From Parcubacteria group bacterium 21-54-25 (lineage in GTDB: Bacteria > Patescibacteriota > Minisyncoccia > Phycocordibacterales > Phycocordibacteraceae), in contig NCBJ01000001.1 in assembly GCA_002255585.1 (NCBI GenBank), forward strand, positions 49,987-113,986: a stretch of 64,000 nucleotides of DNA, written 5' to 3'. The notes beneath the pieces are model-generated. The model did no database searches. It saw only the letters and a program-made list of their open reading frames with translations, and was not told the DNA's origin. Numbering within the stretch: the stretch's first letter is position 1; each line of letters begins with the position of its first letter. The translations under genes and the position numbers were made by a program. Shown piece after piece: positions 16,017-51,408 of the stretch.

Positions 16017-16340
16017 ATGTCAATACGCATGCGTCACACCCGTTCGCACACTAATAACCGCCGGGCACACCACGCGCTTGCCGGTATCTCGGTCGTGGTA
16101 GACAAGGAGAGCGGCGCACTTCGACGCGCGCACCGTCTCGATGAGACGACCGGTAGCTATCGCGGCAGGGTAATTGCCACCCCAAAGAAAAAGAAAGAGC
16201 GTACGAAAGCCGAAAAACACGATCATCCGGCGCACACACACGTTGAGCCGGTTGCAGATAAGGATTCGTCGCAAAAGCCAAAGGTACTCGGTACGCACGA
16301 ACACGGCGACAGTCTTCCAACGTCACGCCGTGGCGCGTAG
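16017..16340 (+). CDS. rpmF: 50S ribosomal protein L32 (with basic C-terminal extension)
   Basis: MSIRMRHTRSHTNNRRAHHALAGISVVVDKESGALRRAHRLDETTGSYRGRVI matches the L32 consensus (M..Q.K.SRSRR..RR.H.AL......VDK.SGE.HL.HH....G.YRGR.V). Confidence 0.8.
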   Translation: MSIRMRHTRSHTNNRRAHHALAGISVVVDKESGALRRAHRLDETTGSYRGRVIATPKKKKERTKAEKHDHPAHTHVEPVADKDSSQKPKVLGTHEHGDSLPTSRRGA

Positions 16341-16435
16341 ATTTTCATACTGTGCACAAAAACAATCGTAGTGCTCTTGCGCTGCGGTTGTTTTTTGCGT
16401 ACCCTAGAAAGTGCACCGCTCTTTACATTTAAATC

Positions 16436-17338
16436 ATGGCAAACCGTCACCTTGCGCGCTCGATTATATTACAAACGCTTTTTGAATGGGATACGACACA
16501 CGCATCCCTTGATAGTGCGCGCGATATCCTCGCTCGAAACCGAGAAGAATTTGGTGGAGACGACACTGATAACCCGTTTATGGAGAAGCTCCTCACGGGA
16601 GTGCTTGCTAAGCACGGGGATCTCGACCTCATTATTGCCAAAGCGGCACCAGAGTGGCCGCTTGAAAAAATCGCGCCAATTGACCGCAACGTACTACGCC
16701 TCGGTCTTTACGAGCTTCTCTTTGCAGACCGCGCACAGGTGCCAGCAAAAGTTGCTATTAACGAAGCCATCGAACTTGCTAAAGCGTTTGGCGGTGATTC
16801 GTCGGGCCGTTTCGTGAACGGTGTTCTCGGCGCAGTGTATAAAGAAATCGGCGAGCCCGGGAAAGATGAAATCGGGAAAAAACGCACACCGCCTGCTGAA
16901 ATGCCGCTTGAGACGCTGGGCGGTGCTATCGTGTACACACAGCACGAGGGGCAATACTATCTCGCGCTTGTGCATGATGTGTTCGGACACTGGACTCTCT
17001 CCAAAGGACATATCGAACATGACTCCTCACCAGAGTTGGGCGTTGCGCGGGTCATCACTGAAGAACTTGGGCTTTCTGGTTCGGTTGAGGGACTTATTGG
17101 AGAAAACGAATACATTGCATCACACCCAGAGAAAGGGAAGACACGTAAGCACGTGTACTTTTTTCTCGTTAGCGCAAGTTTTGAGCCATTAACGCTGAAA
17201 AAAACCGGCGGTCTCGATGACGCGAAATGGTTTAAGCTCGCCGATATTCTTGACCTCAACTTCTATGATGATATGCTCCCCATCGTTACGGCGGGTGTGC
17301 AGAAGATTCTCGACCACGCACGCGCCGCAACGCGATAA
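16436..17338 (+). CDS. nusB: NusB-like antitermination domain fused to a NUDIX hydrolase domain
   Basis: The N-terminal 140 aa (RSIILQTLFEWD...IDRNVLRLGLYELLF...KVAINEAIELAKAFGGDSSGRFVNGVLGAV) is NusB-like. The C-terminal half has Nudix box GHIEHDSSPELGVARVITEELGL (G-x5-E-x7-REUxEExGU). Confidence 0.7.
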   Translation: MANRHLARSIILQTLFEWDTTHASLDSARDILARNREEFGGDDTDNPFMEKLLTGVLAKHGDLDLIIAKAAPEWPLEKIAPIDRNVLRLGLYELLFADRAQVPAKVAINEAIELAKAFGGDSSGRFVNGVLGAVYKEIGEPGKDEIGKKRTPPAEMPLETLGGAIVYTQHEGQYYLALVHDVFGHWTLSKGHIEHDSSPELGVARVITEELGLSGSVEGLIGENEYIASHPEKGKTRKHVYFFLVSASFEPLTLKKTGGLDDAKWFKLADILDLNFYDDMLPIVTAGVQKILDHARAATR

Positions 17339-18027
17339 TGCCTGACTTCACTTCATACGCAAAACAGCTCGGTCTATCATTTGATCATATCGACCTGTTC
17401 GTTGAGGCGCTTACGCATCGTTCATACCTGAACGAAAACCGGAGCGTCGTACACAGTCACAACGAACGCCTTGAGTTTTTAGGCGATGCGGTGCTTGAAC
17501 TTGTCGTCACACACTTTCTTTTTATGAAATTTCCGGAGAAGCCGGAGGGCGAACTAACCGCCTATCGCGCTGCGCTCGTTAACACACAGTCGCTTGCGTC
17601 GTCTGCCGAAGCACTGGGAGTAAATGACATGCTGCTCTTGTCAAAGGGGGAGGCGAAAGACACCGGTCGCGCGCGGCAAATTATTCTTGCCAATGCTTTT
17701 GAGGCGATCGTGGGAGCCGTCTACCTCGATCGAGGATATGCTGCTGCGGCGCATTTTATCGCTGCTACCATTCACCCAAAAATAGATGCGGTGGTCGCCG
17801 GGCGCCTCTGGCAAGATGCGAAGAGTCGCTTTCAGGAAGTGGCGCAAGAGCAGCACGGCGTGACGCCGCGCTACGAAACACTTGGTGAAGAAGGTCCTGA
17901 TCACGACAAACATTTCACCATCGGGGTGTTTCTTAAAGCAGAGCAGATTGCACTAGGCTTCGGCAAGTCAAAACAGGAAGCAGAACAAGACGCCGCACGC
18001 GTTGCGTTACAGAAAACCGGCTGGTAG
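17338..18027 (+). CDS. rnc: Ribonuclease III
   Basis: Signature ERLEFLGDAVLELVV. C-terminal dsRBD (KSRFQEVAQEQHGVTPRYETL...GKSKQEAEQDAARVAL). Confidence 0.9.
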   Translation: MPDFTSYAKQLGLSFDHIDLFVEALTHRSYLNENRSVVHSHNERLEFLGDAVLELVVTHFLFMKFPEKPEGELTAYRAALVNTQSLASSAEALGVNDMLLLSKGEAKDTGRARQIILANAFEAIVGAVYLDRGYAAAAHFIAATIHPKIDAVVAGRLWQDAKSRFQEVAQEQHGVTPRYETLGEEGPDHDKHFTIGVFLKAEQIALGFGKSKQEAEQDAARVALQKTGW

Positions 18028-18092
18028 CGGCAACGTTGTGTCGCCCGCGCGCCATCTTTAGCCGCTCTTGGGTAATACGGTATACTTTTAGC

Positions 18093-20303
18093 ATGCTTAA
18101 GCGACTTGAGATTGCGGGATTTAAATCATTTGCACGAAAGACCGTGCTTGATTTTTCTTCTTCCGTGACGGCAATCGTGGGACCAAACGGATCGGGAAAA
18201 TCAAACGTGGCTGAAGCGTTTCGTTTTGCGCTCGGTGAGCAATCCATGAAGAGCATGCGTGGCAAGCGGAGCGAGGATCTCATCTTTAGCGGATCGCACT
18301 CTGCAGCACGCACTAATCGCGCCGCAGTGGCTATCGTTTTTGATAATTCACGCCGACTCTTTGCGCTCGATTTTGATGAGGTGTCCATCGAACGCGCGGT
18401 CTTTCGCGACGGTACGAGTGAGTATTTTATAAATGGTTCCAAGACGCGCCTACGTGATGTTCAGGAGCTTTTGGCGCGCGCCAATATCGGTGAGAGCGGG
18501 CACCACATTATTTCACAGGGCGAGGCAGACCGTATTTTGCTCGCCTCGCCGCGCGATCGCCGCTCGACGCTTGAGGACGCACTCGGTTTGAAGGTCTATG
18601 AGTTTAAAAAACAGGACGCGATACGCAAGCTAGAAAAGACCGAAGAAAATATTTCTCACGTTGAGGCATTACGCCGTGAACTCGCACCGCACCTACGTTT
18701 CCTCGGCAAACAGGTGGAGAAGCTTGAGCACGCCGCGCAGTTGAGGAGTGCGCTCGCTCAGGCAGCGTGCGAATATTTTTCCATTGAAGACATTTACATA
18801 GAAAAAGAAAAATTTCGCGTTGCAGCTGCGGAAGCGTCTGCAACCGAACAGCTTGCCGTTGCTTCTGCGGAATTGTCCGCGCTTGAAAAACACGCTGCGG
18901 GCGATGCGCAAGGCATGGCGCACCTGCGCACCGTGCGCGCAGCCGAAGCGGCACTTGAAACAGCAACCAGTACACGCGCAGCACTTTCTCGCGAGATCGG
19001 GCGGATTGAGGGTGCGCTCGCAGAGACGAAGAAGCGCGCACATGCCGTAACGCAAGACCCATATGCAAAAGTGCCGCGCGCCGACATTGCGGCGCTTCAC
19101 GATGAGATTGAGCGCCAAGCCGAAGATGTTTCGGGCGAACCGGAAGCGCTTGCCGCAGCCCTCTCGGCTATTCGTGTGGCAGGGCGCGCGTTTTTCGAGC
19201 GTTTTGCCGTATCCAAGGACGACTATTTGGCTGATGAGGAGCGTGCACTGCATGCGCTTGAGGAAGAGCGAGAAATGCACACCGCAAAAGATGCGGCACT
19301 TGCCGAAGAAGTGGAGCATGCACGCATGGCGCTTGCACGTGCACGCGAGGAATCCATCGCGCACGACGAAGCCGGTCGTGAAGGACAGCGACGCCTCATT
19401 GACCTTGCACAAACACAGGCACATGCTGAAGCGGAAGTAGCGCGCCTCTCTGTACGTCGTGCCGAAATCACGCACCTTGCCGAAGAATGTGAACTCGGCA
19501 AACAGGATGTAGCCGCACTTGCGGGTCCCGCAGTGCTTTCATATGCGCCGCGTATGGATATGCCGGATGAACCACGCACCGTACAAGAAACTCGCCGCCG
19601 CACGCTCGAGCGCCTTAAAATTCGTCTCGAAGAATCCGGCGGAACCGGCGAAGATATCCGTCGAGAGTTTGAAGAAGTGTCCGAGCGTGAACAGTTTCTC
19701 GCGCGCGAGCTCGCTGACCTCGCGCAATCGGCGAGCGGCTTGAAGGCGCTCATTGCCGACTTGGACGCCGAACTCGCAAAACATTTTGCTGAGGGGCTTG
19801 CGAGTGTGAATCAATTTTTTGGAGAGTTCTTTTCACTTATGTTTGGTGGCGGCGATGCACGACTCATTCTTGAAGAACCAGCGGCGGTTAGAAGTGACGA
19901 GGACGCAGAAGATTCAAATGAGGATGCGCACGTGCGTGCCGTGGATCGACCAGGCATTGAGGTGTCGGTACATTTGCCAAAGAAGCGCGTGCAGGCACTC
20001 ATGCAACTTTCCGGCGGTGAGCGGGCGCTTACTTCTATCGCGCTTATTTTTGCCATGAGTCAGGTGAATCCGCCGCCATTTTTGATACTTGACGAGACCG
20101 ACGCAGCGCTTGATGAAGCGAACAGTCGTCGCTATGGCGACATGATTGAGACGCTTGCCAAGCGCTCGCAACTGATCGTCATTACGCATAATCGCGAGAC
20201 GATGAGTCGCGCGAACATTCTTTACGGGGTCACGATGGGTGGCGACGGCGTTTCCAAACTCCTCTCCGTGAAATTCGACGAAGCCGTGGCCGTAGCGAAA
20301 TAG
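18093..20303 (+). CDS. smc: SMC-family chromosome segregation ATPase, short form (about 736 aa)
   Basis: N-terminal head MLKRLEIAGFKSFARKTVLDF...IVGPNGSGKSNVAEAFRFALGEQS. C-terminal head LSGGERALTSIALIFAM...FLILDETDAALDEANSRRYGDMIETLAKRSQLIVITHN. Conserved rnc-smc linkage. The coiled-coil region is only about 450 aa. Confidence 0.8.
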   Translation: MLKRLEIAGFKSFARKTVLDFSSSVTAIVGPNGSGKSNVAEAFRFALGEQSMKSMRGKRSEDLIFSGSHSAARTNRAAVAIVFDNSRRLFALDFDEVSIERAVFRDGTSEYFINGSKTRLRDVQELLARANIGESGHHIISQGEADRILLASPRDRRSTLEDALGLKVYEFKKQDAIRKLEKTEENISHVEALRRELAPHLRFLGKQVEKLEHAAQLRSALAQAACEYFSIEDIYIEKEKFRVAAAEASATEQLAVASAELSALEKHAAGDAQGMAHLRTVRAAEAALETATSTRAALSREIGRIEGALAETKKRAHAVTQDPYAKVPRADIAALHDEIERQAEDVSGEPEALAAALSAIRVAGRAFFERFAVSKDDYLADEERALHALEEEREMHTAKDAALAEEVEHARMALARAREESIAHDEAGREGQRRLIDLAQTQAHAEAEVARLSVRRAEITHLAEECELGKQDVAALAGPAVLSYAPRMDMPDEPRTVQETRRRTLERLKIRLEESGGTGEDIRREFEEVSEREQFLARELADLAQSASGLKALIADLDAELAKHFAEGLASVNQFFGEFFSLMFGGGDARLILEEPAAVRSDEDAEDSNEDAHVRAVDRPGIEVSVHLPKKRVQALMQLSGGERALTSIALIFAMSQVNPPPFLILDETDAALDEANSRRYGDMIETLAKRSQLIVITHNRETMSRANILYGVTMGGDGVSKLLSVKFDEAVAVAK

Positions 20304-21022: not shown

Positions 21023-21055
21023 CGGCGTGCGCTTGGCGTGGTACTGTACGTGTGC

Positions 21056-21772
21056 ATGGCAGCGATTATTTTTGATATTGAAACTATTGGTGAAGACTTC
21101 ACCGCACTCGATGAGACTACGCAGGAAGGGCTCACGCGCTGGATTCGCAAAGAGCACGCCAAAGACGACGCGGCGTATGCCGTGGCACTCGAGGATATAA
21201 AAAACGGCCTCGGCTTTTCACCGCTCACGGGAGAGATTGTTGCCATTGGTATGCTCGAGGGCGAGCGTGATCGCGGTGCGGTGTATTACCAAGCGCCCGG
21301 AGAAAACAAGAAAGATTTCGAACAAGATGGAATCACATTTAAACAAATGACCGAGAAGGACATGCTCGCGCAGTTTTGGGAGGTGGCGAGCCATTGCGAT
21401 GAGTTCGTAACGTTTAACGGCCGCAGTTTTGACGTGCCGTTTCTCATGATCCGGTCAGCCGTGCACGGTATTCGACCTACCAAAAATCTCCTTAAGGGAC
21501 GCTACTTGTACCAACAAAATACGAACGCACGACATATTGACCTGTTAGATCAACTTACATTCGAAGGAGCGGTTTGGCGGAACAAGGGTACGTTGCACCT
21601 ATACTGTCGGGCGTTTGGCATAGAGAGTCCTAAGGCGGGCGGTGTGACCGGCGATGACGTCGCGACCCTTTTCCAGGAGAAGCGTTTCGTGGACATTGCG
21701 ACATATAATGTCGGCGACATTCGCGCCACTAAAGCGCTCTACGAGAAATGGCGCGACTATCTAAAACCATGA
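21056..21772 (+). CDS. Predicted 3'-5' exonuclease, RNase H-like (PolB-exonuclease-like, PF10108-type)
   Basis: AAIIFDIETIG is the exo I DxE motif. Further acidic motifs are FNGRSFDVPFL and YNVGDIRAT. Confidence 0.55.
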   Translation: MAAIIFDIETIGEDFTALDETTQEGLTRWIRKEHAKDDAAYAVALEDIKNGLGFSPLTGEIVAIGMLEGERDRGAVYYQAPGENKKDFEQDGITFKQMTEKDMLAQFWEVASHCDEFVTFNGRSFDVPFLMIRSAVHGIRPTKNLLKGRYLYQQNTNARHIDLLDQLTFEGAVWRNKGTLHLYCRAFGIESPKAGGVTGDDVATLFQEKRFVDIATYNVGDIRATKALYEKWRDYLKP

Positions 21773-21899
21773 ATCATGCTACCGACAGGTACATACCGCG
21801 CTCTGCGCGCGGGAACTGCAAAAAGTTCGCGCTCCTGGCCGCCCGGCAAAAACATATTTATTTTTTCCCGACGCTTGCGTCGGCCGCTTGCACGATGCT

Positions 21900-23612
21900 A
21901 TGACCCAACAAAATGCTCTCGACATTTTGAAGACGGGCGCGAATGTGTTTCTCACCGGCGAGCCGGGGAGTGGGAAGACGCACACCGTCAACTTGTTCGT
22001 GGCGTGGCTCAGAGAGCACGGCGTGGAGCCAGCAATCACCGCATCAACCGGCATCGCCGCCACACACATACACGGCCTAACCGTCCATTCTTGGAGCGGT
22101 ATTGGCGTACAGCGTGATCTTTCCGCAGAAGATCTTGACCGCATCGCACAAAAAGAGCACGTAGTGCGTCGTGTGCGAAAGACGCACGTGCTCATCATCG
22201 ACGAAATTTCTATGCTCTCAGCCGATACTCTCGCGATGGTCGATGCGGTGTGTCGGGAAGTACGCCGCGACAGCCGATCGTTTGGCGGCATGCAGGTCGT
22301 GCTGGTGGGCGACTTCTTTCAGCTGCCACCAATTACACGGTCCGCTAGCAGCAATACGCGTGTACAGGGCGATTTGCTCATGCGCGGTGACCCTGAGAGC
22401 GTATTCGCGTTTTCCGGTGAGGTCTGGCATCGATTAAACCCGCTCGTGTGTTATCTCACCGAGCAGTACCGTCAGGAAGACGCCGCGTTTCTTGACGTGC
22501 TGTCGGCAATACGGAGCGGTACCGTGACGGCCGAGCACGAAGCGCTGCTTACCGATCGTCGTGTCGAACCCGCAGACGAGGTGCCGGCACTCTTCCCGCA
22601 CAATGCGAACGTCGATCGCGTGAACGACGCCGCACTCGCAAAACTGCCCGGCACTGCACGACACTTTGCTATGGAGCGTTCTGGACCTGACGTACTTACC
22701 GATGCACTCGTACGCGGATGTCTTTCGCCCGAGACGCTTGCGCTCAAGGAACGCGCACGCGTCATGTTTACGAAAAATAATCCAGCCGAAGGGTTTGCCA
22801 ACGGCACGCTCGGTATGGTAGTTGGGTTCGACCACGGTCAGCCAGCGGTTGAAATGCGTAACGGCCGCACGATTACCGTAGCGCCGATGGAATGGGTCGT
22901 CGAAGAGGGCGGTAAAATACGCGCCAAAATTACCCAAGTGCCGCTACGGCTTGCGTGGGCTATTACGGTCCATAAGAGTCAGGGCATGTCGCTTGACGCG
23001 GCACACGTCGACCTTGCGCATGCATTTGAATATGGTCAGGGTTACGTAGCACTATCGCGCGTGCGATCGCTTGCAGGCCTCACCTTAGCCGGGCTTAATC
23101 GCCGCGCGCTTGAGGTGCACCCCGGTATCCTTGAAAAGGATTCGGTATTTCGCGAGCAGTCTGCGGCTGCCCAAGCGACATTTATCGACCTTTCAGAAAA
23201 AGAACTCGCGACAATGCATGCGCGCTTTCTGAAGGCGATGGGTGGCAGCATCGAGGTGCTGAGCAAGGAAGAACAACACGCGGCCACCGGTCCGCGCGAA
23301 GACCCAATTCAAGCCACCCTCGCGCTTTTACGCACAGGCCACAGCATCGAAGAAATTGCCGCGCTGCGCGCACGAAAACAAAGCACCATTATTACGCACA
23401 TCGAGCACCTTCATGACGCAGGCGCACTCTCGTATGCCGATGTCGCACACTTGCTGCGTGGACGCGAGGAAGACATTGAGACGGCACACACTGCGTTTAC
23501 GCTCTTAGGAACGGAACGGCTCGCGCCCGTTTTCTCAAAATTACACAAGAGTATCTCGTACGACACGCTACATCTTGCGCGCGTACTGTTTCTGTTGAAG
23601 GACAAACCATAG
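21900..23612 (+). CDS. Pif1/RecD-family ATP-dependent DNA helicase with C-terminal HTH domain
   Basis: Walker A GEPGSGKTH, Walker B LIIDEISM, and VLVGDFFQLPP, the Pif1 signature region. C-terminal HTH-like ATLALLRTGHSIEEIAALRARKQSTIITHIEHL. Confidence 0.75.
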   Translation: MTQQNALDILKTGANVFLTGEPGSGKTHTVNLFVAWLREHGVEPAITASTGIAATHIHGLTVHSWSGIGVQRDLSAEDLDRIAQKEHVVRRVRKTHVLIIDEISMLSADTLAMVDAVCREVRRDSRSFGGMQVVLVGDFFQLPPITRSASSNTRVQGDLLMRGDPESVFAFSGEVWHRLNPLVCYLTEQYRQEDAAFLDVLSAIRSGTVTAEHEALLTDRRVEPADEVPALFPHNANVDRVNDAALAKLPGTARHFAMERSGPDVLTDALVRGCLSPETLALKERARVMFTKNNPAEGFANGTLGMVVGFDHGQPAVEMRNGRTITVAPMEWVVEEGGKIRAKITQVPLRLAWAITVHKSQGMSLDAAHVDLAHAFEYGQGYVALSRVRSLAGLTLAGLNRRALEVHPGILEKDSVFREQSAAAQATFIDLSEKELATMHARFLKAMGGSIEVLSKEEQHAATGPREDPIQATLALLRTGHSIEEIAALRARKQSTIITHIEHLHDAGALSYADVAHLLRGREEDIETAHTAFTLLGTERLAPVFSKLHKSISYDTLHLARVLFLLKDKP

Positions 23613-23739: not shown

Positions 23740-24517
23740 GTGGGGACGTGTTTACGGCAATAGAAAGACCCACATAAAGAGAGCGGATAGGCCGCAGGCC
23801 TCAGCATGCAAATGCAACCGCTCCTTGGCGGTTTTTTCTTTTTTGCACGGGGAACACGAGACCTTTGACAACTGAATACGTATAGGTAATCAAAGTGCAA
23901 ACTGCCAAGCAGTATGCAAATAATGCTTGGCATTCAACGAGAAAATCGTTTTGTGGTGTATAGGTCTCCACGCAGGAGACAGTAAGGGTGCACGGTGGAT
24001 GCCTTGGCTTGCGTAGGCGATGAAGGACGTGATTAGCCGGCGATACGCTTCGGGGAGGTGGCTTTTAACCTTCGATCCGGAGATGTCCGAATGGGGAAAC
24101 CCTCCCGCCATGCGCGGGAACCATACGAGTAACGTCGTATGGAGCGCACCTGGGGAAGTGAAACATCTCAGTACCCAGAGGAAAAGAAAGCAATAGTGAA
24201 CCGTTTTTTATCGGCCCGACTAGTCTGGCTGATAAAAAACGGTTCCCGCGATTCCCTAAGTAGCGGCGAGCGAAACGGGATAAGCCCAAACCCACATGTT
24301 CGCATGTGGGGGTTGTAAGGCAGGAACGCAGTACTTGTACTGGAAGAGTTATCAATCATACTTATAGAAGAAACTGCTGGAAAGCAGTGCCCAAGACGGT
24401 AATAGCCCCGTATTTGAAATGGGTATGACTCTTTCGTTCCTGTTCTTGAGTAGTTCGAGACACGAATAGCTCGAATGAATCTACCAGAACTAACTGGTAA
24501 GGCTACATACTACGCAA

Positions 24518-24563
<46 letters not shown>

Positions 24564-25260
24564 GATGAGGGGAGTGAAATAGAACTGAAACCGTGTACCT
24601 ACAAAGGGTCGGAGCCCATGATTCTTTTGAGTCAGGGTGACGGCGTGCCTATTGAAGAATGAGCCTGCGAGTGTGTGTCTGTTGCATAGCTAAGCCCGTA
24701 ATGGGGTGGAGCTTCAGGGAAACCGAGTGTGAATAGCGCGTCGGTAGCAGACATACGACCCGAAGCCAGATGAGCTTGCCATGAGCAGGGTGAAGTGTGT
24801 CGAAAGACACATGGAGGCCCGAACCCGTTGGTCGTACAACGCCTTGGGATGACTTGTGGTAAGGAGTGAAAAGCTAATCGAATCTGGTAATAGCTGGTTC
24901 TCTCCGAAACAGCTTTTGGGTTGGCGTCGCGTGATCCTTCTGGGGGTAGAGCACTGGAAGGGATGAACAGGGAGAAATCTCGTCATTCCTATCAACCTCC
25001 GAATACCAGAAGTTACAGCGCGGCAGTTAGAAGGCGGGGGCGAAGCTCCGTCGTTCGAAAGGGGAAGAGCCCAGATCGCCAGTTAAGGCCCCAAAATCGA
25101 CGCTCAGTACAAGGTGAGGAAGTAAGAATCCTGAGACAATGAGGATGTTGGCTTAGAAGCAGCCACCATTTAAAGAAAGCGTAACAGCTCACTCATCGAG
25201 GGTTCTTGCGCCGTAAATAATCGGGGTTAAGCGTCGTGCCGAAACTGCGGGTTTGCACAC

Positions 25261-25437
25261 TTCACAGGGGAGGAAACTTCCTAAATGTTCTTCGGGGTGG
25301 CGTTCTTCTACGCGCGGACAAAATCCGCTGCGAGGAGGCCAGAGGTATAGCCCTCACCACCCCGACCACTTTCTTTACGAAAGTGGTCAAGAATTATTGA
25401 GACGAATCTAATCATAATGATTCGCCTCTCCTGTGAA
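25261..25437 (+). other. Intervening-sequence-like expansion in 23S helix 45
   Basis: A 177-nt insertion closed by the long-range stem TTCACAGGGGAGG...CCTCTCCTGTGAA. E. coli has a short helix at this point (around position 1170, a classic IVS site). Confidence 0.5.
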
Positions 25438-26178
25438 GTGTGCAAGCGGTAGGAGAGCGTTCTGTTCCGCTATGAAGGGAAAGGGGTGACCCGTCCTGGA
25501 GCGTACAGAAGTGAGAATGCAGGCACAAGTAACCACAATGCAGGTGAGAACCCTGCACATCGAAAGACTAAGGTTTCCCGGGCCATGACAATCATCCCGG
25601 GGTTAGTCGGACCTAAGGGGATGGCGAAAGCCGCACCCGATGGACACACGGTCAATATTCCGTGACCGCCGCACATGCGAGTGGGGTGACGGACTGCAGT
25701 ACTGACGGCCAGTTATTGGATTCTGGTTGGTTTCGTAAGGGGGCGCTCTAGGTAAATCCGGAGCGCGCATACCCCAAGCGATGCCGCGACTTTCTTCTTC
25801 GGAGGGAGGAAGCGTCAGGAGCGCGGTTCCAAGAAAAACCTCTAAGCTTCAGTGTGCGTGCGACCGTACCGAAAACCGACACAGGTGGTCTGGTCGAGAA
25901 GACTAAGATGAACGAGTGAGAGGTCCTCAAGGAACTCGGCAAACAAGCGGCCGTAACTTCGGGATAAGGCCTGCCCATCGCAAGATGGGCCGCAGCGAAA
26001 GATTTCCTAGCGACTGTTTACCAAAAACACAGCTCCCTGCGAACTCGTAAGAGGAAGTATAGGGGGTGACGCCTGACCAATGCCGGAAGGTCAAGTACGG
26101 GTGGTTACATACTTCGGTGTGTAGCTGGACTGTATAAGCCCCGGTGAATGTCGGCGATAACTATAATCGTCCTAAGGT

Positions 26179-26547
26179 CAGACACACTTTTCAGAAATGA
26201 TAAGCGTGTCTGAGGATTGGGACGATTGTAGGGTAGACAGTAACGTCAGCTGCCTTACTGCACAGCAATGTGCAGATTAATCCACCCATGGCCATATGCT
26301 GGGAAGGGAGTGTCTAGGGCATAATTATTCCTTAGACATGAACGATCAGCAGGAAAGATCGAGAATTGAAGGATAGATTGTGGAATTTACGGATAGAGAA
26401 GGGCTTCAGAAGGAAGATTGCGTACATTAATAGAGCGCATGAATCGCAAGAACCCATCACAATTCTTGAAATCCTCAGAGACTACACGCCATGCCCCCGT
26501 ACACGATGCGGGGTGAAGATATAGTCCAAAGGTTTAAAGGAACCTAG
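26179..26547 (+). mobile_element. Group I intron 1 in 23S rRNA (about 369 nt, no ORF), inserted at CCUAAGGU|AGCGAAAUUCC (around E. coli position 1917)
   Basis: The exon junction restores the universally conserved sequence. The P7 core is CAGAGACTACACG ... AAGATATAGTCC (compare Tetrahymena CAGACUAAAUG ... AAGAUAUAGUC). The 5' exon ends in U and the intron ends in G. Confidence 0.7.
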
Positions 26548-26998
26548 AGCGAAATTCCTTGTCGGGTAAATTCCGACGTGCACGAATGGCGTAACGACTG
26601 GGAAACTGTCTCGAGGACTCGCTCGGTGAAAATGCAATACCGGTGAAGATGCCGGTTACCTGTAGTTAGACGAAAAGACCCCAGGAGCTTTACTGCAGCT
26701 TCGTATTGGGGCTACGTGATACGTGCGTAGCATAGGTGGGAGACTTTGAAGCGTGCCTTTTGGGGTACGTGGAGTCGCCAGTGAAATACCACTCTCGTAT
26801 TGTGTAGTTCCTAACCGTCGGGTGGAACCCCGTCGGGACCGTGCGTGGCAGGCAGTTTTAGTGGGGCGCTATCCTCGAAAGCAGCGCCCATCCGACTAAA
26901 TCCAAAAACAGGAAAATATAAAAAAGGGGGACTATGTGAAGTAATTCACATAAGCAATCTGGCTAAATGCTGGAACATCCGAGAATCTTCAAGTACTC

Positions 26999-27023
26999 AT
27001 TTAGGACACGCCGTGTCCTAAAT
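26999..27023. repeat. Palindrome family 2, copy A (ATTTAGGACACGCCGTGTCCTAAAT), inside intron 2
   Basis: 25-nt perfect inverted repeat. The centre CGCCG is inverted relative to copies B and C. Confidence 0.8.
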
Positions 27024-27178
27024 AGTGAAAATCTTTGAAGTGCGGACAATCAGCAGGGAAGACTCGCAAGAGAACCCTCAGAGACTACACGCCAGACTCC
27101 GCGCATAGCGGATGAAGATATAGTCCGATCTGCATGGCGACATGCAGGCGCAATTTCCTCCCGTGATTGCGCACGCCC

Positions 27179-27203
27179 ATTTAGGACACGGCGTGTCCTA
27201 AAT
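27179..27203. repeat. Palindrome family 2, copy B (ATTTAGGACACGGCGTGTCCTAAAT), inside intron 2
   Basis: Part of the 31-nt hairpin CCCATTTAGGACACGGCGTGTCCTAAATGGG. Confidence 0.8.
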
Positions 27204-27549
27204 GGGGAACACAAGCCTAAAAAGTAACGGAGGAGCCTATTAAGGTCGGCTAGGCGCGAATGGAAACCGTGCCGATAGTGTAATGGCACAAGCCGGCTTA
27301 ACTGCGAGGGGTACATCCCAAGCAGATGCGAAAGCAGAGCATAGTGAACCGATGGTTCGCCTTAGAAGCGGCCAGAGATTAACGGATAAAAGTTACCCTG
27401 GGGATAACAGGCTAGTACCGCCCAAGCGTCCATAGCGACGGCGGTGTTCGGCACCTCGATGTCGGCTCACCTTAGCGCGGGGCTGAAGCAGGTCCCAAGC
27501 GTTTGGCTGTTCGCCAATTAAAAAGGTACGCGAGCTGGGTTCAAACCGT

Positions 27550-27926
27550 CGAGCACCTGAATCACGCGATTCGGTTGTTCGACCCGTTTGAACCCCGAGG
27601 AAACTGTTATATAGAATCTGCACAAGATCTCATTGCGTATGCGATGAGTAACTTGAGCAGGTTTGCATGTGTGTGGAGACGCACAAAAAAAGACATACTC
27701 ACGGCGGCGCATTGCAGGAATGCAGTGCGAGCAAATCGACTGATATCGGTGAAATCCTGAACGTTGTGTACGTGAAGGACAATACCGAGGGAAGTGCGGT
27801 AACGCATGCCCCTAGAGACTGAATGTCGATCACCCTACCCATCGAAAGATGCCGGGTGGTGTTACAGTCCGATCCCTTCAGTAATGGAGGTAACGTTCTG
27901 CGCGAAAGCGAAGGACAAACTAGATG
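27550..27926 (+). mobile_element. Group I intron 3 in 23S rRNA (about 377 nt), inserted in AACCGU|CGUGAGACAGG (around E. coli 2593-2596)
   Basis: The exon junction restores the conserved GAACGUCGUGAGACAGUU. Divergent P7 pairing is AGAGACTGAATG ... GTTACAGTCC. Only an 85-aa ORF without homing-endonuclease motifs lies inside. Confidence 0.55.
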
Positions 27927-28069
27927 CGTGAGACAGGTTGGTCTCCTATCTACTACAGGCGTTGATTCTTGAGGGGGCTCGTCCCTAGTACGAGAGGACC
28001 GGGATGAACTGACCTCTGGTCTACCTGCTGTCGCGCCAGCGGCATCGCAGGGTAGCTATGTCGGGTTTT

Positions 28070-28100
<31 letters not shown>

Positions 28101-28328
28101 TTGCCCCAAGATAAGGAATCGTTATGAGACTCCTGGAAGATGACCAGGTTGATAGGCTTTAGGTGTACGCACAGCAATGTGTTCAGCCGAGAAGTACTAA
28201 TACGTCCAGTCTCTTGCGTGGAAATCTGTATGACACAATACGATTTCTCGTTGTGTGCTTTTAGTACCTATACGTATACAGTGGGTGGTCAGAAACCGCC
28301 GCGCGCTTGTGCGCGCTGACGGAGAAAT

Positions 28329-28457
28329 GCGCCCACAGTGTTGGTGATTAATCGGAGGGGATATACCCGTTCCCATTCCGAATACGGCAGTCAAGCCCTC
28401 TTGAACCGATGGTACTCCGCAAGGGGGAGAGTAGGTAGTCGCCAACACTGTGGGCGC
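28329..28457 (+). rRNA. rrf: 5S rRNA
   Basis: CCCGTTCCCATTCCGAATACGGCAGTCAAGCCCTCTTGAACCGATGGTACTC...GGGAGAGTAGGTAGTCGCCAACAC matches the 5S consensus. Helix I pairs GCCCACAGTGTTGGTG with CGCCAACACTGTGGGC. Confidence 0.8.
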
Positions 28458-41253: not shown

Positions 41254-41399
41254 AGCGGAACCGCTCTTGGGGCGGTTTTAGTTTCTTTGAAAGACTGGGT
41301 TTCGATAAAAAAGATGCACTCGAGTCGCATCTCGGAACCCTCCATAGCAGTAGATAGAACGTAAAAGTTCTAATGTGTTCTATTGCGTTCCGCCTATTC

Positions 41400-42857
<1,458 letters not shown>

Positions 42858-43166: not shown

Positions 43167-43240
43167 GCGAGTGTAGCTCAGGTGGTTAGAGCACTCCCCT
43201 GATAAGGGAGAGGCCCCAGGTTCGAGTCCTGGCACTCGCA
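43167..43240 (+). tRNA. tRNA-Ile (anticodon GAT)
   Basis: Acceptor GCGAGTG/CACTCGC. D-arm GCTCAGGTGGTTAGAGC. Anticodon loop CTGATAA. T-arm CCAGGTTCGAGTCCTGG. CCA is not encoded. Confidence 0.9.
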
Positions 43241-44586: not shown

Positions 44587-45903
44587 ATGGACGCCTCTTC
44601 ATTTTTCCGTGGTAAGAACATAACCCTCATGCGTGTCGGGCTCCTTGGGCGAGGAGTGAAAGATGCGGCGTACCTGGCCCAATGTGGTGCTACGGTGCTT
44701 GTGGTGGACGATGCCCCGCAGGCGGTGATGCAGCCCTCTGTAGATGCTCTCCAGAAGTATCCAAATATTTCTTTCAAGTTCGGCTCATACGATCTGCACG
44801 ATTTTCGAACGTGCGACATGGTCTTGAAAGGTGCTGGCGTAGCACTCAACTCTCCGGAAATTGCTGAAGCGAAGAAAAACGGTATTCCTGTGCGCATGAG
44901 CGCGGATCTTTTCATGGAGCTCGCTGGCATACCGGTTATCGGCGTGACCGGCACGCGCGGCAAGTCGACGGTTACGCACATGCTCGAAGCGATACTCAAG
45001 GCGGCAGGAAAGAAAGTGCTCTTAGGCGGCAACGTGCGCGGTATTTCCACGCTCGCACTTCTGCCAGAGACCACCCCAGAGCACGTTGCCGTGCTCGAGC
45101 TCGATTCCTGGCAGTGCCAGGGGCTGGGTGAAGCAGCGCTCTCGCCGCACATTGCGGTCTTTACGACGTTCTATCCCGATCACCTCAATTATTATAAAGA
45201 TGACCCCGGCCAATACCTTGCCGACAAATCCAACATCTTTTTGTACCAAGACCCGGACGACACCCTGGTGACCGGGAGTCAGTGCGCGCCCACGCTCATC
45301 GAAGCGTATGGTGAACACATCATCTCGCACATGATGATTGCCGACGACAAAAAACTACCGACAGACTGGACACTCACGGTTCCAGGCGCACACAATCGCT
45401 ACAATGCCGGTATTGCGCTTGTTGCGGCTCGCGCGATGGGTATTGGTGACGAAACAAGTCGTCGCCCGCTCGCTGCGTTTGCGGGAGTGCCAGGCCGGCT
45501 GGAACTTGTCGCGGAGAAAGGTGACATTCGCTACTACAACGACACCACCGCCACCACGCCCGAAGCCACGCTCGCGGCACTCGCGGCGCTTGGTGCCGAT
45601 CATACCGTGCTTATCATGGGTGGGGCCGATAAAGGACTTGACATGAGCAAGCTCCTCGCCAAGCTTCCGGAAGTGAAAAAAGTCGTGTTGCTTGCGGGCA
45701 CAGGTACCGACCGTGTGCACAGCGAACTGCCCGACGCGCCGATGCACGACTCACTTGAAAACGCGCTTGCCGACGCGCGCGCCCACGCCGCACCCGGCGA
45801 CGCTATTCTCCTTTCGCCCGCATTCGCTTCGTTTGGCATGTTCAAAAATGAATTCGACCGCGGTGACCAATTCACGGCGCTCGCGAAAGGATATGGTGAA
45901 TAA
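44587..45903 (+). CDS. murD: UDP-N-acetylmuramoyl-L-alanine--D-glutamate ligase
   Basis: Mur ligase motifs GVTGTRGKSTVTHM and the central DSWQCQG region. Lies upstream of murI and murC. The MurC-specific GIGMS motif is absent here and present in the 47072 gene. Confidence 0.75.
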   Translation: MDASSFFRGKNITLMRVGLLGRGVKDAAYLAQCGATVLVVDDAPQAVMQPSVDALQKYPNISFKFGSYDLHDFRTCDMVLKGAGVALNSPEIAEAKKNGIPVRMSADLFMELAGIPVIGVTGTRGKSTVTHMLEAILKAAGKKVLLGGNVRGISTLALLPETTPEHVAVLELDSWQCQGLGEAALSPHIAVFTTFYPDHLNYYKDDPGQYLADKSNIFLYQDPDDTLVTGSQCAPTLIEAYGEHIISHMMIADDKKLPTDWTLTVPGAHNRYNAGIALVAARAMGIGDETSRRPLAAFAGVPGRLELVAEKGDIRYYNDTTATTPEATLAALAALGADHTVLIMGGADKGLDMSKLLAKLPEVKKVVLLAGTGTDRVHSELPDAPMHDSLENALADARAHAAPGDAILLSPAFASFGMFKNEFDRGDQFTALAKGYGE

Positions 45904-46309
45904 CGTACGGTCACAGTATGCAGGGGGCTTTTTCTATGATGCGGATGCAAAGACGGTTTTGCTTCACCTTCGAGACACACACACAACTTTCGCGCCTGGG
46001 AAGTGGGCGTTCTTTGGGGGGTTGTGTGAAGACAAGGAGACGCCTGAGGATTGTTTTTTGCGTGAACTTCGTGAGGAGCTCGGTGTCGAAGTGGATACTG
46101 AGAAAGTCGTGCACCTTCGTTCGTATTTGAATGAGGAACCCAAAACCGATAGACACGTATTTTATACAACGAAGAGCGTGTCCGTCTCGGCGCTCGTTCT
46201 AAACGAGGGTGCTGGATTTGGCTGGATTTCTTTAGGCAATGTTTTTTCGTATGATCTTTCTGACTATACGCGAAGTGACCTCGAGTTTTTCGTCACACAA
46301 ATACAATGA
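45893..46309 (+). CDS. NUDIX hydrolase (138 aa)
   Basis: Nudix box GGLCEDKETPEDCFLRELREELGV. The start ATGGTGAATAA overlaps the murD stop. Confidence 0.65.
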   Translation: MVNNVRSQYAGGFFYDADAKTVLLHLRDTHTTFAPGKWAFFGGLCEDKETPEDCFLRELREELGVEVDTEKVVHLRSYLNEEPKTDRHVFYTTKSVSVSALVLNEGAGFGWISLGNVFSYDLSDYTRSDLEFFVTQIQ

Positions 46310-49671: not shown

Positions 49672-51408
49672 ATGGAGAACCCTGAACGTGTCACGTACTT
49701 TGCCGCAACTGATGCGCGCGGACAACGCACGCCGTTTGGTATCAAACAGAAGGATCGTTCCAAACACATGTACGTTATCGGCAAAACAGGCATGGGCAAA
49801 TCAACCCTGCTCGAGAACATGGCGATACAGGATATTCGAAATGGCGAGGGACTCGCTTTTATCGACCCGCACGGCGGCACTGCCGATAAGTTGCTTGACT
49901 ACATTCCAGAGGAACGAATACCCGACGTAGTGTACTTTGCGCCGTTTGATATGAATCAGCCGATTGCGTTCAACATCATGGAAGACGTGGGATACGACAA
50001 ACGCCACCTCGTGGTAAGCGGTCTCATGGCGACGTTCAAGAAAATCTGGCAGGATGCGTGGAGCGCGCGCATGGAGTACATTCTCTCAAACACACTTCTG
50101 GCGCTTCTCGAGTACCCGGACGCGACGTTGCTTGGCGTCAACCGCATGTATACCGACAAGGCATATCGCAAACTCGTCGTGGACAACGTGAAAGATCCAC
50201 TCGTCAAAGACTTCTGGACAAAAGAGTTTGCTGGCTACACTGACCGCTATACGCAGGAGGCGACACCGGCTATTCAAAACAAAATCGGCCAATTCACGAG
50301 CAATCCGCTCATTCGAAACATTATCGGGCAACCGAAGTCCTCGTTCGATATTCGCGAGATGATGGACCAAAGAAAGATTCTTATCATCAATCTCTCCAAA
50401 GGACTCGTGGGTGACACCAACATGCAGCTCTTGGGCTCCATGCTTACGACGCGTATCTTTTTGGCGGCTATGAGCCGCGCTGACGCAGCAGCACCAGAGA
50501 TGGCCAAGCTGCCACACTTCTATTTCTACGTCGACGAATTCCAGAACTTCGCAAACGAAACATTTGCCGAGATACTTTCCGAGGCGCGCAAATACAAACT
50601 AAACCTCGTCATTGCACACCAGTACGTAGAGCAGATGGAGGAAGAGGTGCGCGCAGCGGTCTTTGGCAACGTCGGGACAACGGTAGCGTTTCGCGTCGGA
50701 CCGTTTGACGCGGAGATACTCGAGACGGTGTTCATGCCAGAATTTACCAAAGAAGATCTGGTGAACCTTGGGTTTGCGCAGATCTATCTTACCCTCATGA
50801 TTGACGGCGTCGGTTCGCGGCCGTTCTCTGCCGTCACTATTGCACCCATTGAACCGCCTCCACACACGTTTAAGACTGAGGTCATCGAGGCGTCGCGTGC
50901 GCAATTTGGGCACCCTCGCGACCAGATAGAAGCAGCCGTTACAGCAGAGCTTGCTACCACTACCAGCACGGAAACGAGGGGCGCTAGTGCCGCCCCACCC
51001 GCGCGCAACGGGAAAAAGGCTCCCCGGATATCTCCGCGAGATACGGAACAGTCTCCGCCGATCGAAGGAACTACCCACCGCCCACCACGCCCTGTTGCGG
51101 TCCCCCCAACACCACAAAAGACGGCTGACGAGCTCAAGGCCGTACTACGTTCGATTACCACCACTACTTCCGCCACCAAACTGCGCAAAGAAACAACACA
51201 GAAGCACGCGCTCAAGAGCGCGCTTTCTGACGTGCTACAGCGTGCCGGGGGAACGACATCCTCATACAAACCGCCCCACAATGCGCCGGTGCCAGGCCCT
51301 GCGCGCCCACGTGAATCACCCCCACAACAAAAAGAAAACAGAGAAGCAGCTCTTCCATTTGAAGTGCCTGAAGAAACGTTGAAGAACGTACTTAATGGCC
51401 ATGCGTAA
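49672..51408 (+). CDS. P-loop ATPase, TraD/VirD4/DUF87-like (type IV coupling-protein-like) with Pro/Thr-rich C-terminal tail
   Basis: Walker A YVIGKTGMGKSTLL, then AFIDPHGG. Walker B FYFYVDEFQNFA. The C-terminal 180 aa are low-complexity (PPPHTFK...PRPVAVPPTPQK...). Confidence 0.5.
   Translation: MENPERVTYFAATDARGQRTPFGIKQKDRSKHMYVIGKTGMGKSTLLENMAIQDIRNGEGLAFIDPHGGTADKLLDYIPEERIPDVVYFAPFDMNQPIAFNIMEDVGYDKRHLVVSGLMATFKKIWQDAWSARMEYILSNTLLALLEYPDATLLGVNRMYTDKAYRKLVVDNVKDPLVKDFWTKEFAGYTDRYTQEATPAIQNKIGQFTSNPLIRNIIGQPKSSFDIREMMDQRKILIINLSKGLVGDTNMQLLGSMLTTRIFLAAMSRADAAAPEMAKLPHFYFYVDEFQNFANETFAEILSEARKYKLNLVIAHQYVEQMEEEVRAAVFGNVGTTVAFRVGPFDAEILETVFMPEFTKEDLVNLGFAQIYLTLMIDGVGSRPFSAVTIAPIEPPPHTFKTEVIEASRAQFGHPRDQIEAAVTAELATTTSTETRGASAAPPARNGKKAPRISPRDTEQSPPIEGTTHRPPRPVAVPPTPQKTADELKAVLRSITTTTSATKLRKETTQKHALKSALSDVLQRAGGTTSSYKPPHNAPVPGPARPRESPPQQKENREAALPFEVPEETLKNVLNGHA

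Follow-up and report, generated by a model that had tools for sequence, protein, structure and literature searches.

Background

NusB is near-universal in bacterial ribosome biogenesis, where it acts with ribosomal protein S10 (NusE) to bind boxA RNA and to nucleate the complex for rRNA antitermination and ribosome biogenesis. To our knowledge, the NusB proteins characterised so far are all stand-alone and about 140 amino acids long. The contacts between NusB and boxA involve Phe122, which is stacked on U8, Glu81, helix alpha7 and the N-terminus (PMC3177189). boxA is also known to autoregulate Nus-factor genes, namely suhB and rpsJ in E. coli and ribH-nusB in Pseudomonas (Baniulyte et al. 2017, PMC5725501). 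In the Nudix protein NUDT9, the first Glu of the REUXEE motif coordinates the catalytic Mg2+ and the RILGEE mutant is inactive, while the catalytic base varies among Nudix families (PMC6461439). The NUDT9-H domain of TRPM2, whose Nudix box is mutated, was found to bind ADPR without hydrolysing it (PMC4974056).

A literature search for a fusion between NusB and a Nudix domain found no published description. Such a fusion is encoded in the 64-kb window considered here (the window being the whole stretch of DNA that was analysed); it is conserved in many related species and is undescribed so far.

The fusion gene, its neighbours and its distribution

The features discussed below are collected in Table 1. 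A protein of Parcubacteria group bacterium 21-54-25, annotated as NusB, shows 100% identity to the fusion protein. Both Pfam domains are called above their gathering scores within one ORF, in agreement with the original prediction that NusB is covalently joined to a Nudix-fold domain. The gene was also correctly placed between rpmF and rnc: rpmF (L32p) lies upstream, and the product of the downstream gene carries the Ribonucleas_3_3 and dsrm domains, its start overlapping the stop of the fusion gene (ATAATG). RNA folding of 16338-16445, which takes in the spacer hairpin, gave a minimum free energy of -32.6 kcal/mol (z = -3.5 versus shuffles), and equivalent GC-rich hairpins are found 5' of the fusion gene in relatives. 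The gene rpsJ is absent from the 64-kb window. The second NUDIX gene that had been noticed at 45893-46309 is indeed embedded among mur genes, with MurD-like, glutamate racemase and MurC-like neighbours; it is stand-alone and its box, GLCEDKETPEDCFLRELREELGV, is fully canonical.

Table 1. Positions of the fusion gene, its domains and associated elements in the window
Feature	Coordinates	Strand	Remarks
rpmF intrinsic-terminator-like hairpin, then T-run, in the rpmF-nusB spacer	16357..16397	+	
boxA-like GCTCTTTACATT in fusion-gene leader	16418..16429	+	7 nt before ATG; fits boxA consensus positions 1-8
nusB::nudix fusion ORF	16436..17338	+	ATG start, 300 aa; coordinates include stop
NusB domain, aa 1-138	16436..16849	+	PF01029, TIGR01951
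Linker, aa 139-160	16850..16915	+	Junction motif GEPGK conserved, rest variable, predicted disordered
Nudix-fold domain, aa 161-292, ApnA-hydrolase type	16916..17311	+	PF00293, PDB profile, Foldseek
Variant Nudix box GHIEHDSSPELGVARVITEELGL, aa 191-213	17006..17074	+	E7 -> S197, E16 -> V206
rnc (RNase III)	17338..18027	+	Ribonucleas_3_3 1.9e-38, dsrm 1.6e-15
boxA-like GACCTTTGACAA in 23S rRNA leader	23860..23871	+	Candidate NusB target, near-consensus, by eye
boxA-like GTTTCTTTGAAAG in 16S rRNA leader	41281..41293	+	Candidate NusB target, near-consensus, by eye

Relatives were gathered with an alignment of the NUDIX part only, which gave at least 586 confirmed matches in reference genomes (contigs, one genome per species), most of them labelled Parcubacteria or Patescibacteria. 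From these matches 80 related species loci were drawn and examined: all 80 contain a single fused ORF and none contains split genes. In at least 68 of them rpmF precedes the fusion gene, and in at least 54 rnc follows it. The best 120 database matches are all about 300 amino acids long and possess both Pfam domains.

The NusB domain

PF01029 matches the N-terminal half at aa 7-136 (E=1.1e-33; 116.9 bits against a gathering score of 23.1) in an alignment that spans model positions 3-133 of 133, and the NCBIfam nusB equivalog TIGR01951 scores 123.5 bits, above its cutoff of 88.35. These HMMs agree with the NusB assignment made originally. An RsmB-type NusB-like domain was considered and rejected, as RsmB models reach only 20-56 bits, far short of their cutoffs of 269-540, and TIGR01951 does pass its own. 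The AlphaFold model of this half consists of seven helices with high pLDDT, the all-helical NusB fold, and Foldseek aligns it with Aquifex NusB from the NusB-NusE-BoxA complex (3r2c_B; TMt 0.89, rmsd 1.7 A) and with 1tzv (TMt 0.87).

The residues associated with boxA contact are largely kept. F126, which corresponds to E. coli F122, is invariant across 134 fusions, and D83, a conservative change from E. coli E81, is conserved in at least 90% of them; also retained are the FVNGVL helix and the basic character of the N-terminus (R4, H5, R8). F16 of the fusion protein aligns with E. coli Y18, the nusB5 site. The protein is most likely the NusB of this organism, as judged from these sequence features, and we infer that its NusB half binds boxA and NusE.

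The Nudix domain and its variant box

PF00293 matches the C-terminal half at aa 169-280 (E=3e-10; 40.7 bits against a gathering score of 21.1). In a profile search of the PDB the best match was the Ap4A hydrolase of Aquifex (3i7u, E=6.6e-11), followed by Chlamydia CT771 (4ilq, 9.8e-09) and Thermus Ndx1 (1vc8, 2.6e-08), and Foldseek superposes the model on 3i7u with a TMt of 0.87 and an rmsd of 2.2 A. The motif W-T-x-[SP]-K-G-H-x-E is common to this half and the ApnA hydrolases. Further significant matches include Dcp2 (E ~3e-5), BdRppH and the AvrM14 effector, and the Nudix domain of NrtR (3gz8) is among the top Foldseek matches.

The box was described in the original prediction as intact, which is not the case. 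It reads G191-HIEHD-S197-SPELGVA-R205-V206-I-T-E209-E210-L-G212-L against the signature GX5EX7REUXEEXGU, so that G1, R15, E19, E20, G22 and U23 are present in GHIEHDSSPELGVARVITEELGL while Ser occupies position 7 and Val position 16, where the signature needs Glu. Catalysis is in doubt because S197 and V206 replace signature glutamates and the RILGEE mutant of NUDT9 is inactive. The closest relatives likewise possess no Glu at positions 7 and 16, the pattern in the nearest species being GHIE.D[PAST]...R[VI][IV].EE, and in the subclade of this protein E4 and D6 too are fixed. Among the 80 nearest species, E20 is found in all 80, E or D at position 19 in 78 and R15 in 72, and E16 is missing in 56.

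Across 120 divergent fusions the box is fully canonical in 69, and E16 is lost in 41; representatives of clusters at 50% identity, with canonical boxes in only 6/35, overstate the erosion seen in this broader sample. One canonical-box orthologue, P0292, has GHIEAGETLEEGTKREIKEETGL. The state of E16 changes at least 26 times on a rough NJ tree of the NusB halves, and some fusion lineages additionally lose E19 or E20. The full Nudix box is found in 21 of 22 stand-alone relatives. Outside the box, W186, T187, K190 and Y277 are present in 120/120 divergent fusions and Y226 and W265 in 119/120; these are putative ligand-binding residues. F183, Y242, G259, F266 and D279 are conserved in fused copies only. 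A decaying or pseudo Nudix domain was rejected, as the NUDIX half is conserved equally to the NusB half within the close clade (mean pairwise identity 0.83 for each).

Linker and domain arrangement

Y135, K136, E137, G139, E140, P141 and K143 are conserved in at least 90% of the 134 fusions and belong to the junction motif YKE.GEPGK. The linker has a mean pairwise identity of 0.47, the two domains 0.65 and 0.55, and linker residues 141-150 have pLDDT below 50 in both AlphaFold models. A deeper alignment raised pLDDT from 78 to 87.5, yet no interdomain interface was predicted, and pTM was 0.51 and 0.60 across the two models, even with 134 sequences. As modelled, the protein is composed of two confidently predicted domains joined by a flexible, roughly 20-residue linker, without a fixed interface.

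boxA-like elements

In the leader of the fusion gene, GCTCTTTACAT fits positions 1-8 and 10 of boxA, the consensus GYTCTTTAANA being that of gamma-proteobacteria (PMC5725501). In 44 of 77 related species loci a G[ACT]TCTTT core starts between -14 and -9 from the ATG, against an expectation of about 0.011 per 30-nt window; only this 7-8 nt core matches, and conservation does not extend into the 3' half of the consensus. A generic leader or translation signal was considered and rejected for this motif: judged by eye against the ORF list, only the copy at 16418 appears to lie directly ahead of a gene start in the window, and the other G[ACT]TCTTT matches appear intra-ORF. The two candidate targets in the rRNA leaders are each preceded by a small hairpin, and 100 nt separate GACCTTTGACAA from the downstream 23S gene (start 23972), 105 nt GTTTCTTTGAAAG from the downstream 16S gene (start 41399). 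When the window was scanned for the E. coli boxA with up to 3 mismatches allowed, no enrichment emerged (51 found, 47 expected). The rRNA genes themselves are unusual, being unlinked in the source genome and intron-bearing.

A sigma-70 consensus scan called no promoter in the rpmF-nusB spacer of the window, and the promoter is taken only from TGnTATACT-like boxes in relatives. In these relatives the predicted mRNA start lies 1-4 nt before the boxA-like core, leaving a leader of about 11-13 nt in which no Shine-Dalgarno sequence is apparent by eye. The conserved boxA-like element at the start of the fusion gene suggests that the gene may be autoregulated.

Possible functions of the fusion

About an even chance is given to the explanation that a genuine NusB delivers a module derived from an Ap4A hydrolase, probably catalytically impaired, to boxA RNAs. 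A Nudix domain of ApnA-hydrolase origin is permanently attached to the C-terminus of NusB via the flexible linker, and NusB binding would carry it onto nascent boxA RNAs, namely the 16S and 23S leaders and probably its own short leader. With the Mg-coordinating first Glu of REUXEE gone in this lineage (RVITEE), and the Glu of position 7 too, the module would most likely bind a nucleotide, a dinucleoside polyphosphate or an RNA 5' end, or would at best be a strongly weakened hydrolase. A binding module or weak hydrolase is considered most likely because both signature Glu are lost, and the box argues that binding, sensing or much-reduced hydrolysis is more likely in this lineage than a normal hydrolase; we infer both the impaired catalysis and the ligand of the module. 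The original prediction coupled a pyrophosphohydrolase to antitermination: the fusion is real, whereas the hydrolytic part is weaker here, the first REUXEE Glu being absent. Hydrolysis by the fused relatives with canonical boxes is plausible, and because these are many (69/120) the ancestral and widespread role of the module may well be enzymatic. A rewired, still catalytic metal site is possible as well, since R15, E19 and E20 are kept and E4 and D6 are fixed in the subclade.

A less probable alternative, which keeps a real claim to attention, is that the Nudix domain, its non-canonical box notwithstanding, has remained an active pyrophosphohydrolase that NusB brings to nascent boxA RNAs. There it would carry out RppH-like removal of 5' pyrophosphate, decapping of Np4N or NAD-type ends, or local degradation of ApnA or (p)ppGpp, and 5'-end status or alarmones would thereby be coupled to rRNA transcription and to processing by the neighbouring RNase III. 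The retention of R15, E19 and E20, the last without exception in the 80 nearest species, is consistent with activity, as is the fixation of E4 and D6; D6 may offset the lost E7, whereas no residue compensating for E16 is evident. The same can be said of the conservation of the domain, equal to that of NusB, its nearest relatives being ApnA hydrolases with significant matches also to Dcp2, BdRppH and AvrM14, the canonical boxes in more than half of the divergent fusions, and the boxA-like element predicted only 1-4 nt from the 5' end of its own mRNA. The first REUXEE Glu is, however, a Mg2+ ligand whose exchange for an aliphatic residue inactivates NUDT9 (PMC6461439). E16 moreover changes many times across the fusions, and in some lineages E19 or E20 is lost too, which shows that catalysis is not the conserved requirement on the Nudix domain.

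It is quite improbable that the fusion results from compaction of genes in a streamlined genome, with NusB and Nudix made as one polypeptide and acting independently. Gene ends overlap in the compact genomes of CPR bacteria, as do those of nusB and rnc at this locus, and the disordered linker and the lack of any predicted interdomain interface (pTM 0.51 to 0.60) are in keeping with independent domains; but no split genes occur in the 80 species loci, the junction motif is conserved at 90% or more, and five residues of the Nudix half are conserved only when fused. The catalytic residues are relaxed in the fused copies but not among stand-alone relatives, which indicates that fusion altered the selective regime on the Nudix domain. 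The chance of an assembly or sequencing artefact, in which a missed stop or frameshift merged adjacent genes, is negligible, as the reading frame is uninterrupted and the identical architecture in independent NCBI, JGI, ENA and Logan assemblies and in all 80 species loci refutes the frameshift merger that had been raised as a caveat.

A wider scheme, which goes beyond the delivery of an impaired module by NusB and is regarded as rather doubtful, is that the Nudix domain, placed by boxA at nascent RNA 5' ends, couples antitermination and NusB autoregulation to 5'-end chemistry or ApnA. Where the box is canonical, the module would act on the 5' end (ppp, Np4N or NAD-type caps) by conversion or decapping; in lineages with RV boxes, such as that of the source organism, it would sense the 5' end or an alarmone of the ApnA type and leave it uncleaved. 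If true, antitermination responsive to 5' ends or ApnA would be an input so far not known for any Nus-factor complex.

In the reduced genomes of a large bacterial radiation that is still poorly understood, a Nudix domain fixed to NusB implies a further input into the transcription and maturation of rRNA, possibly a nucleotide, alarmone or RNA 5'-end state. The family is also a natural series from canonical to eroded Nudix boxes in one fixed architecture, and is useful for studying the change from an enzyme domain to a binding domain. As the fusions are annotated only as 'NusB', the Nudix half has been overlooked.

Comparison with known systems

The fusion protein resembles the NusB of E. coli and Aquifex aeolicus in its full NusB domain, its fold and its boxA-contact residues, and differs from characterised NusB by about 160 extra C-terminal residues (linker and Nudix), for a total of 300. 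The boxA-autoregulated Nus-factor genes described previously (PMC5725501) are a possible parallel, as the fusion genes too have a boxA-like element within 50 nt upstream of the start and conserved across species; however, they belong to another phylum, and in relatives the element sits directly against the start codon, the leader being about 11-13 nt long.

The hydrolases 3i7u, 1vc8 and 4ilq are nearest to the Nudix half by sequence and fold and have downstream aromatic residues in common with it. They are stand-alone and carry REVWEE or RELVEE with Glu at position 7, whereas the domain studied here is fused and carries RVITEE with Ser. Dcp2 shows an analogous layout, in which an all-helical N-terminal regulatory domain is hinged to an RNA-directed Nudix domain, although its box is canonical rather than variant and two-domain superpositions on the fusion are poor (rmsd 12-15 A). 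We know of no evidence relating the N-terminal domain of Dcp2 to NusB.

TRPM2 NUDT9-H (RILRQE) and the Nudix domain of NrtR (3gz8) are Nudix domains that bind ligands but are catalytically inactive; they are of the ADP-ribose type, a subfamily unlike that of the present domain. Unlike human TRPM2, the fusion protein keeps both E19 and E20. In both of these proteins, as at V206 of the fusion, the first REUXEE Glu is replaced by an aliphatic residue, and a conserved Nudix domain is likewise fused to a non-enzymatic partner.

The fusion gene and its distribution

The NusB-NUDIX fusion is encoded by one ATG-initiated open reading frame of 300 amino acids, as originally noted. Both domains were recovered by Pfam, NusB (PF01029) at residues 7-136 (E=1.1e-33, 116.9 bits) and NUDIX (PF00293) at residues 169-280 (E=3e-10, 40.7 bits against a gathering score of 21.1), and the gene indeed lies between rpmF (L32p) upstream and rnc directly downstream. 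Its stop codon overlaps the rnc start codon, and an SMC-like gene follows rnc. A database protein from Parcubacteria group bacterium 21-54-25 (Patescibacteria group) is 100% identical to it. The best 120 database relatives, 76-100% identical and derived from independent NCBI, JGI, ENA and Logan assemblies, are all about 300 amino acids long, cover 97-100% of the query and contain both Pfam domains. Among the matches listed, at least 586 were confirmed by pattern scan of one-genome-per-species contigs, a figure that is no clean species count because some genes may be counted under both search patterns. NusB and NUDIX occupy one reading frame at each of the 80 distinct loci examined; rpmF precedes it in at least 68 of them and rnc follows it in at least 54. 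Since these single frames recur with the same architecture across independent assemblies, the fusion is real and fixed, and a frameshift or misassembly is refuted.

Divergent fusions (30-40% identity) are found in MAGs labelled Campbellbacteria, Zambryskibacteria, Taylorbacteria, Lloydbacteria, Minisyncoccia and Paceibacterota, and a few records bear deposited labels such as Saccharibacteria, Pacebacteria or Bacillota. The database name is simply NusB, though precomputed Pfam calls show both domains, and full-text literature searching found no published description of a NusB-Nudix architecture. Among the homologues of note (P0247, P0273, P0358, P0359, P0249, P0251), some fused proteins of about 300 amino acids carry no NUDIX in the precomputed calls, which is extreme erosion. 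Two have other architectures: in P0249 (577 amino acids) the NusB-like and Nudix parts are C-terminal, and in P0251 (379 amino acids) the Nudix part spans residues 241-368.

The rpmF product is about 105 amino acids long, the L32p model covering only residues 4-51 and the remainder being a Lys/His/Glu-rich C-terminal extension. Typical bacterial SMC proteins are much longer than the SMC-like protein here (755 amino acids, SMC_N at residues 20-740), which implies a shortened coiled coil. The PolB-exonuclease-like and PIF1-like genes lie just ahead of the promoter region of the 23S rRNA. Further on, a coupling protein homologue is followed by a protein with Lamin-tail and PKD domains.

Positions of the features in the window
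Feature	Position	Remarks
rpmF	16023-16340
boxA-like element of the fusion leader, GCTCTTTACATT	16418-16429	after hairpin, 7 nt before ATG
NusB-NUDIX fusion	16436..17338 (+)
Junction motif	16847-16864	aa 138-143, just beyond the canonical NusB domain end
SMC-like gene	18036-20303
PolB-exonuclease-like / RNase H-fold protein	21038-21772
PIF1-like helicase	21888-23612	C-terminal HTH
boxA-like element of the 23S leader, GACCTTTGACAA	23860	after small hairpin; near-consensus, by eye
23S rRNA	23972-28219	span 4248 nt, model 2925 nt
Group I intron (RF00028)	26910-27147	within 23S span
5S rRNA	28340-28447
boxA-like element of the 16S leader, GTTTCTTTGAAAG	41281	after small hairpin; near-consensus, by eye
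16S rRNA	41399-42857	followed by tRNA-Ile(GAT) at 43167
Stand-alone NUDIX	45893-46309	138 aa
TrwB/TraG-type type IV coupling protein homologue	49672-51408
Lamin-tail and PKD domain protein	51395-52933

The NusB half

The NusB half scores 123.5 bits against the NCBIfam NusB equivalog TIGR01951 (cutoff 88.35). Models of RsmB, which has a NusB-like domain, score far under their cutoffs, and this identity was rejected. Its predicted fold matches Aquifex NusB in the NusB-NusE-BoxA complex (TMt 0.89, rmsd 1.7 Å) and Thermotoga NusB (TMt 0.87). BoxA is an 8-nt element read almost wholly by NusB, with contacts beginning at the NusB N-terminus; F122 in helix alpha7 stacks on U8, an F122D mutant being defective, and E81 hydrogen-bonds U8 (PMC3177189). 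By alignment, E. coli F122 corresponds to F126 of the fusion, invariant in 134 diverse fusions, and E81 to D83, at least 90% conserved in the same set. Conservation among fusions extends to the FVNGVL helix and to the basic N-terminus (R4, H5, R8).

The NUDIX half and the linker

Of 1.84 billion cluster representatives searched exhaustively with residues 140-300, only 661 matched at E<=1e-3, so this half constitutes a small, distinct subfamily. The closest solved structures by sequence and profile are the Aquifex Ap4A hydrolase (E=6.6e-11), Chlamydia CT771 and Thermus Ndx1 (an Ap6A hydrolase), followed by weaker matches to mycobacterial MutT1/Rv2985, the C. elegans and human Ap4A hydrolases and the Dcp2 Nudix domain. 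The fold agrees with that of the Aquifex enzyme (3i7u; TMt 0.87, rmsd 2.2 Å) and also matches the NrtR, BdRppH and AvrM14 effector Nudix domains, while no solved chain in the fold search matched both fusion halves well.

W186, T187, K190 and Y277 are present in 120 of 120 fusions and Y226 and W265 in 119, all six being common to stand-alone relatives. We take the P-K-G lysine and the aromatic residues to be those that bind the phosphates and the adenine ring in Ap4A hydrolases, a putative mapping. Conserved specifically in fusions are F183, Y/F242, G259, F266 and D279. In the close clade the NusB and NUDIX halves both average 0.83 pairwise identity and the linker 0.73; among the 134 diverse fusions the averages are 0.65 (NusB), 0.55 (NUDIX) and 0.47 (linker). 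The NUDIX domain is under selection.

The Nudix box, originally described as intact, is not: compared with GX5EX7REUXEEXGU (numbered from G1), position 7 of GHIEHDSSPELGVARVITEELGL is Ser and position 16 is Val. The query's closest relatives likewise have a small residue instead of Glu at position 7 and Val or Ile at position 16, giving a box of the type GHIE-x-D-[PAST]...R-[VI]-[IV]-x-E-E, while sister clades show the canonical RE[IL]KEE. Across the 80 nearest species genomes, E16 is found in 24, E7 in 32, E/D19 in 78 and E20 in 80. E7, R15, E16, E19 and E20 are all kept in 6 of 35 full-length fused cluster representatives, as against 21 of 22 stand-alone relatives. Cluster representatives give too much weight to divergent singletons. 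Of 120 fused proteins sampled more broadly, 69 retain the four signature glutamates, E16 has been lost from 41 (replaced by A, V, K, I, G or C) and E20 from 7. On a rough NJ tree of the NusB half alone, which is noisy and does not give the direction of change, E16 state changes at least 26 times among 134 sequences (mean 43 for shuffled tips) and E20 only 4 times. As the stand-alone relatives are canonical, repeated loss of E16 among fusions is the simplest reading.

The first glutamate of REUXEE coordinates catalytic Mg2+, and NUDT9 changed to RILGEE is inactive; human TRPM2 NUDT9-H, with a mutated box, binds ADP-ribose and does not hydrolyse it (PMC6461439, PMC4974056). The catalytic base differs among Nudix families (PMC6461439), so these precedents are no proof that the fusion is inactive. 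The main alternative, that the domain is still an active enzyme of RppH or ApnA-hydrolase type whose metal site has been rewired, draws on the retention of R15, E19 and E20 and on E4 and D6, fixed in the query's subclade; we consider it rather unlikely. The second, stand-alone NUDIX was correctly placed in the mur cluster, between a MurD-like ligase, glutamate racemase and a MurC-like ligase. Its box, GLCEDKETPEDCFLRELREELGV, is fully canonical, and the genome thus retains a conventional Nudix enzyme in addition to the fused variant.

Across the 134 diverse fusions, the junction motif Y135-K-E-x-G-E-P-G-K143 shows at least 90% conservation. The residues after it are modelled as disordered, and the motif might act as a hinge or bind a partner. 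AlphaFold models from 18 close sequences (pLDDT 78.1, pTM 0.51) and from the 134 diverse fusions (pLDDT 87.5, pTM 0.60) both give residues 141-150 a pLDDT below 50. Since both domains are confidently folded and no fixed interdomain interface is predicted in these models, the linker is read as a probable flexible tether. A neutral fusion with no functional coupling is improbable, given the relaxation of catalytic residues specifically in fusions, the conserved junction and the lack of split genes among the 80 loci.

Candidate boxA elements

The 23S and 5S genes are not linked to the 16S gene but lie 13 kb upstream of it, and the 23S span contains further unexplained inserted sequence besides its intron. 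In both rRNA leaders (23817-23871 and 41258-41293) a GC-rich small hairpin (aaccgctccttggcggtt and accgctcttggggcggt) precedes a U-rich boxA-like element. As near-consensus matches read by eye, these elements are only suggestive as natural NusB targets in the window.

The spacer between rpmF and the fusion contains a strong terminator-like hairpin (z = -3.5). Downstream of it, 44 of the 77 related species loci have the core G[ACT]TCTTT with its first base between -14 and -9 relative to the ATG, where about 0.011 per locus would be expected. These loci all come from the nearer clade (L001-L060), and both box types are represented among them. A -10-like hexamer, often extended (TGCTATACT), precedes the motif in 33 of the 44, its end 8-16 nt away (most commonly 9 nt), and this consensus-based spacing implies a putative leader of about 11-13 nt starting 1-4 nt before the motif. 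No Shine-Dalgarno sequence was seen by eye in the fusion leaders, and in a simple scan the window's own spacer gave no sigma-70 promoter call. The conserved layout (window 16400-16435; L001-L060) is rpmF hairpin, -10-like box, about 9 nt, and G[CAT]TCTTTCC abutting the ATG. A generic leader signal was rejected, other matches in the window seemingly lying inside reading frames when compared by eye with the list of these. The core may mediate autoregulation of NusB on an almost leaderless mRNA.

Proposed function and comparison with known systems

On the best-supported reading, to which we give an even chance, a genuine NusB carries a tethered module derived from ApnA hydrolases to boxA RNAs. 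In the query's lineage the module would probably be catalytically impaired and would act as a binder of a nucleotide, dinucleoside polyphosphate or RNA 5' end.

The fusion combines known kinds, NusB and Nudix, and is not a new kind of system. The hairpin and boxA-like layout of both rRNA leaders resembles the boxB-boxA arrangement. Baniulyte et al. showed that boxA (GYTCTTTAANA) within 50 nt of the start codon represses suhB via NusB/NusE, and proposed widespread Nus-factor autoregulation (PMC5725501); the candidate leader element of the fusion would fit boxA-mediated autoregulation of that kind.
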